Assembly: GCA_964594175.1 (NCBI GenBank)
Contig: CAZQLM010000001.1
Coordinates: 1-33,025 of the forward strand
Source: an uncultured archaeon
Lineage (GTDB): Archaea; Aenigmatarchaeota; Aenigmatarchaeia; Aenigmatarchaeales; SZUA-1535
Direction: 5' to 3'
Length of the DNA: 33,025 bases
The position numbers were made by a program, and so were the translations under genes. Shown one piece after another: positions 8,888-33,025 of the stretch (the first letter of the stretch is position 1; every line of letters starts with the position of its first letter). Under the pieces are notes generated by a model, which saw only the letters and a list, made by a program, of their open reading frames with translations, searched no databases and had not been told where the DNA came from.

Positions 8888-9658
8888 TTACCTTATTTCT
8901 CCAGCATCTTCCCACCATTTTTCAAAATTCTCCTTAAAATCGTTTTCGCAATTCAAAAAGAAGAAACCTTTTATTTCCTTATCCATAGTTTCAACAACAA
9001 CTCCGTATTTTTCGTCAGAAACCATTATAAAAGGATATATAATCTCATAAGTATATCTAATCTGGAAACCTATTTTTTCGAGAAATCTTGCCTTTTCCTC
9101 CGGGAGTTCGCAGGCCAACCATCGCATTTCCACATTTCTTTCCTCGCATCTTCTCCACGCATCAAGAACAACAAAATCTTCTGGAACAAAATCAGCTATC
9201 ACACAAAGCTCTTTTTTTGCTACATCAGCTACATAAGCGCATACGAGCTCGAAATCTTCAGAAAATTTTCTTATTCTCGGTTTTTCTGAAACAGCACGTG
9301 AAACTATTAACCTTTCGTAGAATTTTTGAGCAGTAGTAAGTGCAGCTTTCCTTTCCAAATACTCGCTTGTTATTAAAGCTATTATTCTCGGAAATGGATT
9401 AACACGGGAAAGCCAGAAAAGTTTTTGCTTTTCTTCTTCAAAATCCACTATACCAAGCTTTGCTAGATTATAAAGGTATTTATAAGCATTTGTCACGTTT
9501 AGTCCTGCTTTTCTCGCTATCTCGCTTGCAGTATTTTTTACTTTTCCCATGCTTTCCAGCTCGAGCATTGCAGAAATAACGTTAACTTCGACTTTATCAA
9601 AGAATTTTGAACGCTTCAACATTTCAGTGATTTTTCCGTAATTTTCGAAATAAAACAT
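8888..9658 (-). CDS. TrmB-family transcriptional regulator
   Basis: 256 aa. It has an N-terminal winged HTH (..TASEIARKAGLNVTNAYKYLYNLAKLGIV..) typical of TrmB, followed by a C-terminal effector-like domain. Confidence 0.75.
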   Translation of the reverse strand: MFYFENYGKITEMLKRSKFFDKVEVNVISAMLELESMGKVKNTASEIARKAGLNVTNAYKYLYNLAKLGIVDFEEEKQKLFWLSRVNPFPRIIALITSEYLERKAALTTAQKFYERLIVSRAVSEKPRIRKFSEDFELVCAYVADVAKKELCVIADFVPEDFVVLDAWRRCEERNVEMRWLACELPEEKARFLEKIGFQIRYTYEIIYPFIMVSDEKYGVVVETMDKEIKGFFFLNCENDFKENFEKWWEDAGEIR

Positions 9659-31694: not shown

Positions 31695-32356
31695 TTTATC
31701 ACCTCCTTGAACTCTTCAGGAGATTTTATAAAACAAGCTTCTTCGATGATTTTCGCTATTAATTTTTCTACCTCTATTTCTTTGAAAATTTTTTCGACTT
31801 TTTCATAGGAAGCCATTGTTACAGGGTAGCGAGGTACATATCTGCATGTTCCCACGTGCCTTTCTACTCCCAATCCAAACCTTCTTGCAAGCTTTACTAT
31901 TTCTTCTTTGTCAAAGCAGAGCAAAGGATGCAGCACAGCATGCCTTACTCCAAAATGCGTTGCTTGCATGTTGTAAATTGTTTGCGATGCTTTTTGTGCA
32001 AGAACTTCACCGGTAGCGATGGCTTTGCAGTTGAGCCTTTCGCAGAGTAAATCGCAAGCAAAGAGCATGCTCTTCCTGCAGAGCACACAAATGTATTTTC
32101 TTTTAACTCTGAGAGAAAGTTCTTTAAGCACGGTAGAAAAATTTACAATAACCATTTTTTTAATTTTAATCCTTTCCCAAATACTTTCAAGAATTTCCTG
32201 AAGAGTTTGGGTGTATTTCCTGGGAAAAACTTTTTCCAGAGAAAAATGTACAGGTGTTACTTTGTAAACTTTTGAAAGAAGTTTCATAGCCACTGGGCTA
32301 TCTATACCACCTGAAAACATGAAAAGAATTTTGGAGCCGCGGGGGAGATTTTCCAT
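31691..32356 (-). CDS. thiI: ThiI-like PP-loop ATPase (tRNA 4-thiouridine/thiamine sulfurtransferase core) lacking the N-terminal ferredoxin-like and THUMP domains
   Basis: It has the PP-loop FSGGIDSPVA, ..ATGEVLAQKASQT.., ..LHPLLCFDKEEIV.. and CRYVPRYPVT. Start ATG 32356 gives MENLPRGSKILFMFSGG. The track ORF extends to 32476 only by reading through the tRNA-Cys gene. Confidence 0.82.
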   Translation of the reverse strand: MENLPRGSKILFMFSGGIDSPVAMKLLSKVYKVTPVHFSLEKVFPRKYTQTLQEILESIWERIKIKKMVIVNFSTVLKELSLRVKRKYICVLCRKSMLFACDLLCERLNCKAIATGEVLAQKASQTIYNMQATHFGVRHAVLHPLLCFDKEEIVKLARRFGLGVERHVGTCRYVPRYPVTMASYEKVEKIFKEIEVEKLIAKIIEEACFIKSPEEFKEVIK

Positions 32357-32438
32357 TTCAAGAGAGTTGGACTCCCTTATATTTGAACTCCCGTCAACCG
32401 GTCTGCAGCCGGTCGCATAGCCCCTCTGCCACCGCGGC
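32332..32438 (-). tRNA. tRNA-Cys (anticodon GCA) with a ~33-nt intron in the T-loop, CCA encoded
   Basis: Minus-strand read: GCCGCGG-TG-GCAG-AGGGGCT-ATGC-G-ACCGG-CTGCAGA-CCGGT-TGAC-GGGAG-TTCAAAT-[33 nt]-CTCCC-CCGCGGC-T-CCA. It has a perfect acceptor stem and anticodon stem and a U73 discriminator. It is a GC-rich island in AT-rich DNA. Confidence 0.8.
32348..32380 (-). other. Putative non-canonical tRNA intron (T-loop, about position 59/60) of tRNA-Cys
   Basis: ATAAGGGAGTCCAACTCTCTTGAAATGGAAAAT must be removed to join T-loop TTCAAAT to the T-stem strand CTCCC. The boundaries can slide by 1-2 nt. There is an internal hairpin AAGGGAGT/ACTCTCTT. Confidence 0.6.
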
Positions 32439-32796
32439 ATGAGTAAAAAATTACTATCCAAAGCAAAGATATTCACCTTTCACAATACCACCTCACATAG
32501 GAATTAACAGGAATAATTTATAAATCTGATGGCAGTAGTTTTTATAAAACCTGAAATTAGAAAATCTGGCATGTGGAATGGATTGTAAATGAACCGTGGG
32601 TGTAAGCTTCAAAGTAATGCAGAGATAGAATTCGTTGTGGATGGTGAGTTTTTTTCGTGATTTCGAAATCGAGATTTTAAAGCTTTACAAAAGCGGAAAA
32701 GTTAGGATTGCTCAAAGAAATTTTTTACCGAGATTCGATTGGACCAACAATTCCCTTTTGAATAGCTGCGCGTTTTAAATGGTCCCGCGGGCCGGA

Positions 32797-32842
32797 ATCT
32801 CTGGCTCGGATGGGTTGATAAGGGCGGGGAAGGCGCCCTTAT
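32797..32842 (-). other. Putative intron 2 of tRNA-Tyr (T-loop, about position 59/60)
   Basis: 46 nt lie between TTCAAA and T-CCGGC. The intron starts with ATAAGGGCG, which pairs with CGCCCTTAT to form a 9-bp hairpin. The boundary is ambiguous by 1-2 nt. Confidence 0.6.
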
Positions 32843-32864
32843 TTTGAACCGGCGGCCTGACGGT

Positions 32865-32907
32865 TTCTTTGCGAGCGCAGGCTACGAAACCGCGCAAAAG
32901 CGCAGCC
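32865..32907 (-). other. Putative intron 1 of tRNA-Tyr (canonical 37/38 region)
   Basis: 43 nt lie between anticodon-loop CTGTAG and A-CCGTC. The anticodon GTA is retained for every placement that restores a 7-nt loop. There is an internal hairpin CTGCGC-TTTT-GCGCGG. Confidence 0.6.
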
Positions 32908-32969
32908 CTACAGCCGTCCGCTCTTCCAGACTGAGCTACCGCGGGATATAAATTTGAAGTGAAGAAGGG

Positions 32970-32977
32970 TATTTAAA
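32970..32977 (-). promoter_or_regulatory. TATA box for tRNA-Tyr
   Basis: On the minus strand TTTAAATA ends 24-25 nt upstream of the mature tRNA 5' end at 32945. Both the sequence and the spacing are canonical for an archaeal box A. Confidence 0.55.
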
Positions 32978-33025
32978 TTTTTAATCTAGGTGAGTTGAGT
33001 TGATATGCTCAATCCTCTATATATG

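Follow-up and report, generated by a model that had tools for sequence, protein, structure and literature searches.

A tRNA-Tyr(GUA) gene interrupted by two introns lies on the minus strand at positions 32780 to 32945 of the window, a 33,025-nt stretch of DNA that is contig C1 of a 744-kb, 36% G+C, 84%-complete assembly (G000). The organism, a small uncultured DPANN archaeon, is related to the Aenigmatarchaeota, and the locus is very probably its functional and, in this assembly, sole tRNA-Tyr(GUA) gene. Judging by comparison with its relatives, it would carry one ancient intron at the canonical 37/38 site and one recent and mobile intron at 59/60 in the T-loop; splicing of both introns is a prediction. 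The gene fits a known kind, the multi-intron tRNA genes of DPANN lineages with a broad-specificity EndA splicing endonuclease. Its parts are as follows.

32780..32945, minus: whole tRNA-Tyr(GUA) gene, a 166-nt precursor body with CCA encoded
32908..32945, minus: exon 1, 38 nt, tRNA positions 1-37 (acceptor 5' strand, D arm, anticodon-stem 5' strand and CUGUAG)
32865..32907, minus: intron 1, 43 nt, canonical 37/38 site
32889-32906, minus: hairpin of intron 1
32881-32884, minus: TAGC of intron 1, which pairs with G31-G34
32873-32879, minus: TGCGCTC of intron 1, which pairs with exon 22-28
32867-32870, minus: AAAG of intron 1, 3' strand of the predicted bulge-helix-bulge (BHB) central helix
32843..32864, minus: exon 2, 22 nt, positions 38-59 (A38, anticodon-stem 3' strand, variable loop, T-stem 5' strand and UUCAAA)
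32797..32842, minus: intron 2, 46 nt, at 59/60 in the T-loop, including a C-rich linker
32818-32842, minus: 9-bp hairpin of intron 2, ATAAGGGCG/CGCCCTTAT
32799-32802, minus: AGAG of intron 2, which pairs with U54-C56; the following AU and U60 form the 3' bulge
32780..32796, minus: exon 3, 17 nt, positions 60-76 (U60, T-stem 3' strand, acceptor 3' strand, A73 and CCA), 100% identical in the congener G002
32970..32977, minus: TTTAAATA, TATA-box-like promoter element ending 24 nt ahead of the first tRNA base (+1)

An earlier note on this DNA had read the interval as a doubly interrupted tRNA gene, and its minus-strand reading matches the sequence exactly. The arithmetic is borne out as well, since introns of 43 and 46 nt remove 89 of the 166 nt and leave 77. 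All 21 stem pairs are Watson-Crick, as claimed, and the C1-G72 pair, A73 and the anticodon GUA are read directly from the sequence. C1-G72 together with A73 is the archaeal and eukaryal identity rule for tRNA-Tyr known from the tyrosyl-tRNA synthetase (TyrRS) of M. jannaschii. The conserved tRNA nucleotides (U8, A14, G18G19, U33, G53, U54U55C56, A58 and C61) are all in place. The promoter box that the note had placed 24-25 nt upstream was found as TTTAAATA, and a box of TTTAAA type starts at -30 to -36 in about 20 of the 31 tRNA genes recovered from the genome.

The unspliced gene escaped the standard finders used, ARAGORN (including its intron mode) and Rfam at the gathering threshold, which reported only a tRNA-Phe in the window. 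Once both introns are removed, the 77-mer forms a perfect cloverleaf that ARAGORN calls tRNA-Tyr(gta), and with intron 2 alone removed ARAGORN calls a tRNA-Tyr with a 43-nt intron at position 37. The proposed identity and the positions of both introns are upheld by these calls and by an orthologue in the congener G003 that lacks intron 2. With its single intron the G003 gene scores 55.6 bits on the Rfam tRNA model (RF00005, gathering score 29) and so passes it. The covariance model R1 gives the gene itself 123 bits; this score is circular, as the gene sits in the model, and was not used as evidence.

A second tRNA-Tyr gene was found in the 84%-complete assembly neither by ARAGORN and Rfam nor by an anchored scan (described below) and model R1. 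The gene could be real and yet redundant if an uninterrupted or one-intron tRNA-Tyr in the unassembled 16% or so of the genome carried the load. The gap in the assembly leaves room for such a copy, RtcB and TyrRS are likewise missing, and only 31 tRNA genes were recovered. At this genome size, however, one copy per isoacceptor is usual, and a model search of 26 genomes of the order returned one top tRNA-Tyr locus per genome, G041 alone giving two hits of identical score. Redundancy is thus unlikely, and the locus is better regarded as the working tRNA-Tyr gene.

Comparison with relatives helped to place the splice junctions, that of intron 2 to the base. Near-identical exons were found in orthologues from three genomes of the same genus or order and from about 38 genomes of the class. 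G003 has the same exons and a 42-nt homologue of intron 1, and its T arm is uninterrupted (GCCGG-TTCAAAT-CCGGC). From this empty site, intron 2 is exactly the 46 nt between A59 and U60, and the junction is unique because a shift of one base in either direction fails to recreate the empty site. For intron 1, 37/38 is the only placement that yields the loop CUGUAGA, which is conserved across all orthologues. A cut at 36/37 would give the loop CUGUAAA with A37, leaving the anticodon unchanged and altering position 37 alone. Such a shift also restores a 7-nt loop, since the intron ends in ...AAAGAA and is followed by A. Nevertheless, the CTGTAG of the conserved exon 1 is invariant among orthologues and the base that follows it is variable (G, A, C or T), while the rule for the 3' bulge (two intron bases and nucleotide 38 beside the anticodon stem) points to 37/38. 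G37 is also the base found in the tRNA-Tyr of M. jannaschii. The 36/37 cut is therefore unlikely, and the 37/38 placement is retained.

Wider comparison separates the two introns in age. A homologous 37/38 intron of 39-70 nt is present in the tRNA-Tyr of all genomes examined, 26 from the order and 12 more from the class, while a T-loop intron accompanies it in only three of the 26 order-level genes. The presence of the canonical intron in all 38 orthologues and the patchy occurrence of the other indicate, at the level of sequence, that the 37/38 intron is ancient and conserved throughout the class, and that the 59/60 intron is recent and polymorphic. In G002, of the same genus and represented by the metagenome-assembled genome (MAG) SZUA-1535, both introns occur and the tRNA-Tyr gene is likewise invisible to Rfam. 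Its T-loop intron is 51 nt long and unrelated to that of G000 except in ending with ..GAGAU. The earlier note had recommended the gene as a phylogenetic marker. This does not hold for the T-loop intron, a poor marker that one congener lacks and in place of which another has an unrelated sequence, in contrast to the 37/38 intron with its conservation over the whole class.

Further analysis of the whole genome revealed that the tRNA-Tyr gene is typical of its surroundings. Standard tools found six tRNA genes in the entire assembly, and behind the weak Rfam hits were tRNAs interrupted after GGTTC[AG]A[AGT]. An anchored scan was therefore built on acceptor and T-arm pairing, with the 59/60 insert removed and ARAGORN run on the remainder. 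It recovered 31 tRNA genes, a lower bound because the scan is blind to introns in the acceptor or T stems: five uninterrupted, one with a canonical intron only, and 25 with a 59/60 intron, at least 11 of which contain a further intron. The 25 genes share the arrangement TTC[AG]A[AGT]-intron-T, and in all 25 the 3' exon begins with U60. On odd precursors ARAGORN misassigned isotypes, so that its 'Stop tta' is Lys-UUU, its 'Ala tgc' (C29) is Ile-UAU and its 'Ser tga' (C23) is Arg-UCU. As 25 of the 31 genes have the 59/60 intron, the tRNA-Tyr gene is unexceptional in its genome and cannot serve as the special marker of it that the earlier note had seen. The least likely alternative, that the locus is a pseudogene whose T-loop insert is a mobile element that inactivated it and is not removed from the RNA, draws on the mobile family to which the insert belongs and on its relaxed splice motif, and is highly improbable given that 25 of the 31 tRNA genes, serving most of the amino acids, have an insert of this type (were all of these dead, the cell would have no translation), that all stems are intact, that the exons are identical to those of congeners, and that this is the sole tRNA-Tyr gene found.

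The 59/60 intron hides most tRNA genes of this genome, with standard finders recovering six of at least 31, and such genomes appear tRNA-poor without being so. Manual curation of DPANN tRNA sets has been explicitly urged (Kaneta et al. 2018, PMC5829648). Counts of intact-tRNA hits across the order show heavy disruption in two further families too. Short 59/60 introns of 10-11 nt were seen in the tRNA-Phe of G010 (L008) and G003 (L019), none being present in the tRNA-Phe of G000, and the tRNA-Asn of G017 (L015) has both 37/38 and 59/60 introns; T-loop introns of this kind therefore occur across the order.

Intron 2 belongs to a family of related sequences. At least 11 T-loop introns (family A) share a hairpin, in which compensatory changes are seen, and after it the sequence CUUAUCAACCC-UCC(UCACC); they are 58-91% identical to Tyr intron 2. 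The closest relative, at 91% identity, is the T-loop intron of tRNA-Ala(CGC) on contig C14. In G000 the hairpin module is confined to tRNA T-loop introns. In the tRNA-Ala(GGC) of the congener G001, an identical 25-nt hairpin module, UAAGGGCGCCUUCCCCGCCCUUAUC, occurs in both the 37/38 and the 59/60 intron, and the orthologous gene in G000 (C11:16413-16487) is uninterrupted. The T-loop intron of that G001 gene (L006/L022, G001:C1, about 9200-9500) also has a long extra inverted repeat. Homologous introns are thus found in non-homologous tRNA genes and are present or absent between close relatives, as is characteristic of a mobile family. The best explanation of these sequences is that the 59/60 Tyr intron would be a recent mobile acquisition, from a family that has colonised this T-loop position in most of the tRNA genes of the genus.

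A comparable situation has been described in Thermoproteales (Sugahara 2008 and Fujishima 2010, both as reviewed in PMC4033280). There, a tRNA can have as many as three introns, placed at canonical or non-canonical sites, similar introns in different tRNA species indicate transposition, and the introns are associated with a broad-specificity EndA (PMC4033280). The differences are that Thermoproteales belong to the phylum Thermoproteota rather than to DPANN, that their EndA insert is the CSL/L1 loop whereas it is an L3 loop here, and that insertions in the present genome are almost all at the single site 59/60. Within a single genus the site can be empty or occupied by an unrelated intron, and one module is common to 37/38 and 59/60 introns; together this amounts to a clean natural experiment on the movement of archaeal tRNA introns. 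What is added to the earlier descriptions is within-genus evidence of empty sites and intron turnover, the near-saturation of one insertion site, and a covarying exon-intron helix (see below).

The splice motifs of both introns are of the relaxed helix-bulge-helix (hBH) type, as modelled on the canonical geometry, in which X-5..X-2 and L-5..L-2 form the central helix, flanked by the bulges [X-1, X, i1] and [L-1, L, X+1] (X being the last exon base before the intron, i1 the first intron base and L the last). For intron 1 the central helix is C32-G, U33-A, G34×A and U35-A, with A, A and A38 as bulge 2. For intron 2 it is U54·G, U55-A, C56-G and A57×A, with A, U and U60 as bulge 2. At both 3' sites a bulge of three nucleotides therefore separates the 5-bp exon stem from the central helix, which has three pairs and one mismatch. 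Both 5' sites adjoin a local hairpin instead of a closed bulge, and where the partner strand of the inner helix would normally be there is a single-stranded linker of 16-18 nt. The author of the earlier note could draw no strict BHB for either intron, and rightly so, since the G34×A and A57×A mismatches and the replacement of the inner helix by a hairpin and linker depart from the 3-4-3 form, the kind that an alpha4 or alpha'2 EndA can cleave.

The enforced hBH fold of the T arm is only 1.9 kcal/mol above the minimum free energy, and positions 54-57 can form three or four pairs with intron bases L-5 to L-2 in all 25 genes with a 59/60 intron, which explains the conserved intron ending ..GAAA[CU]. 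Many orthologues end the 37/38 intron in ACAG-AA-A, a perfect central helix with C32-U35, so that the AAAG of this genus is a degenerate form. A 4-bp helix between TAGC and G31-G34 was also considered as the true BHB central helix of intron 1 and rejected, because cleavage at the corresponding 3' site would retain some of the intron in the tRNA and because a 2x1 internal loop takes the place of a bulge on the other side.

An experimental precedent comes from another DPANN archaeon, ARMAN-2 (Candidatus Micrarchaeum acidiphilum), whose pre-tRNA-Cys(GCA) and pre-tRNA-Pro(GGG) have 59/60 T-loop introns with a relaxed hBH motif and in which tRNAs with two introns occur (PMC3239211). Its 59/60 hBH intron was cut in vitro by its own broad-specificity EndA (Fujishima et al. 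2011, PMC3239211). ARMAN-2 differs in having a three-unit epsilon2 enzyme as opposed to two separate tandem endA genes, and a Cys intron of 13 nt as opposed to 46 nt with a conserved hairpin and linker. Moreover, about 80% of the tRNA genes in the present genome have the 59/60 intron.

The earlier note had argued that both introns would need a relaxed-specificity endonuclease and had proposed an inventory of endA genes. The genome fits this expectation, as it encodes two tandem endA paralogues (PF01974 hits on C3:22251-23374, minus, the genes lying at C3:22251-22811 and C3:22796-23374; TIGR00324 matches of 101 and 78 bits), one of which has a predicted insert of the L3 type, a loop associated with broad specificity. 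This 178-residue EndA is closest to the catalytic subunit NEQ205 of N. equitans (3IEY_A, E 3.7e-34) and has a Lys-rich L3-type insert, GVHPLKRGKKTAREH, before the catalytic His, the NEQ205 counterpart being GVIPKKGKRSEREH. Its 171-residue paralogue lacks the L3 loop. On model NF006795 (350 residues) the 171-residue product aligns with the N-terminal, structural half and the 178-residue product with the C-terminal, catalytic half, and the Tyr and His of the EndA triad are conserved in both. The two products may form an (alpha-beta)2 heterotetramer. Among the Aenigmatarchaeota loci fetched, a tandem endA pair was found only in this genus, in G000 and G002. In DPANN, the occurrence of an L3-loop EndA is correlated with tRNA gene disruption (Kaneta et al. 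2018, PMC5829648). The heteromeric EndA of N. equitans (NEQ205/NEQ261; PDB 3IEY; PMC5829648) is similar in being encoded by two genes and in its Lys-rich insert. It is used mainly on trans-spliced split tRNAs, however, whereas the two genes described here are tandem paralogues whose alignment shows no conserved triad Lys.

Based on these features, a processing pathway can be proposed. Transcription from the gene's own TATA-like promoter would give a precursor of at least 166 nt, which EndA would cut at four sites. Each 3' site would lie in a bulge of 3 nt that separates an exon stem (anticodon or T stem) from a short helix of loop nucleotides (32-35 or 54-57) with the four intron bases ahead of the last two. 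Each 5' site would lie two unpaired bases past this helix, at the foot of the intron hairpin (relaxed hBH). RtcB would then join the three exons into a 77-nt tRNA with C1-G72, A73 and the anticodon GUA.

Several observations weigh against a functional, twice-spliced gene. Each central helix has one mismatch, and the nearest-neighbour model places another fold of the precursor about 6-9 kcal/mol below the cloverleaf. The position of the triad Lys is A in both EndA paralogues (RAQ and RAK), as compared with RKK in M. jannaschii. Neither RtcB (PF01139) nor TyrRS was found in the 84%-complete assembly, where the sole class-Ib synthetase match is a tryptophanyl-tRNA synthetase (TrpRS). The congener G002 does encode RtcB, as do 15 of 15 high-quality genomes sampled from the order. 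All Aenigmatarchaeota EndA proteins examined (loci L033-L041) have Ala, Ser or Thr at the position of M. jannaschii K156 (motif IRA[NQE]) and keep the Tyr and His; the substitution is lineage-wide, and these homologues must be active.

The most unexpected feature of intron 1 is its complementarity to the exon. Folding of the precursor gives, in place of a cloverleaf, a rod in which exon 22-28 is paired with the 3' part of the intron, and 31-34 with TAG[CU].

32865-32907 (intron) with 32909-32924 (exon), minus: rod; orthologues in L004, L023 and L070-L118

On the exon side the rod takes up the 3' strand of the D stem, nucleotide 26 (G26) and the 5' strand of the anticodon stem at its top, and 31-34 includes the first anticodon base. 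The earlier note had asked for the precursor to be folded in search of splice motifs; relaxed hBH motifs can indeed be drawn, but the minimum-energy fold is the rod. In eight of nine orthologues tested it lies 4-13 kcal/mol below the cloverleaf in the nearest-neighbour model. Alignment of 26 orthologues showed the rod to be 94.2% paired, compared with 30-47% when the partner columns were slid by one to three positions, and 26 cells had changes on both sides, a number reached by none of 500 shuffles. Covariation was seen at exon positions 26, 27, 28 and 31, with pair types AU (10), CG (6) and GC (4) between 27 and the intron, UA (9), AU (4) and CG (4) at 28, and GC (20) and AU (5) at 31. The anticodon stem, serving as a control, was 100% paired. 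Independently, RNAalifold chose the rod together with the intron hairpin. The duplex energy of exon 22-34 against the intron had a mean z of -2.3 relative to shuffled introns and was below -2 in 21 of 38 orthologues, while two control exon segments had a mean z near 0.

The class-wide 37/38 tRNA-Tyr intron may thus be more than a passive BHB insert, providing a selected alternative helix with exon 22-28 and 31-34, a suggestion that is tentative and leans towards doubt. The rod, itself conserved throughout the class, is mutually exclusive with the D stem, the anticodon stem and the BHB. Since it would exclude the splice-competent motif, the precursor would have to switch conformation before splicing. 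If the suggestion is true, the rod could act as a checkpoint that keeps unspliced pre-tRNA-Tyr out of the L-shape, or it could order end-processing or modification before splicing, for example by exposing U35-A36-G37 or the D-loop. The excised intron could also act in trans on tRNA-Tyr. A role of intron 1 in the formation of pseudouridine-35 is a weak proposal despite the presence of TruD/Pus7 in the genome, because the archaeal Pus7 of P. abyssi modifies tRNA-Tyr without an intron (PMC2651775).

Canonical introns of tRNA-Tyr in eukaryotes and many archaea also lie at 37/38 in tRNA-Tyr(GUA), are deeply conserved within a lineage, and pair with the anticodon (PMC2651775; PMC12168002). The covarying pairing with exon 22-28 sets the present intron apart, and no description of such a pairing was found in the literature. 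The helix offers a handle on why the tRNA-Tyr intron is so persistently conserved. The complementarity could not be traced to a duplicated 3' strand of the anticodon stem, as a copy would place two bases between the partners of 28 and 31, and there is only one. A second gene, tRNA-Ile(UAU) (C29:249-399, minus; 37/38 and 59/60 introns), has a canonical intron in which GCGCUCU(G) occurs twice and is complementary to exon 20-27; this predicted intron/D-stem pairing is of the same kind as in tRNA-Tyr.

Other canonical introns of the genome have features of their own. Intron 1 of tRNA-Tyr was considered as a box C/D guide and rejected for its lack of C or D boxes, unlike the intron of tRNA-Met(CAU) (C13:15232-15421, plus). 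The latter is a 69-nt 37/38 intron with two GUGAUGA and two CUGA motifs, a sequence that suggests a box C/D-like RNA inside. A hairpin of the form GUUGAGC-loop-GC(A/G)AUGA(A/G)A is common to the canonical introns of Arg-UCU, Trp, Glu and Leu-UAG (C23:7825-7985, C33:4509-4655, C20:14014-14154 and C57:1455-1641 in G000). It resembles a K-turn or K-loop and is a possible site for L7Ae.

The tRNA-Tyr gene may stand in a run of tRNA genes. The last 19 nt of C1 (window 33007-33025) are the same as the first 19 nt of C15 (C15:1-19). If the two contigs were joined, tRNA-Thr(CGU) (C15:65-140, minus) would lie about 125 nt upstream of tRNA-Tyr and would give a same-strand run of Thr, Tyr and Cys, with tRNA-Cys at 32332-32438. 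Lastly, among the RtcB genes of relatives, the reading frames of G014:C25 and G021:C5 are about 1000 residues long with the Pfam match split into 1-50 and 46-426, and the sequences probably contain an intein.

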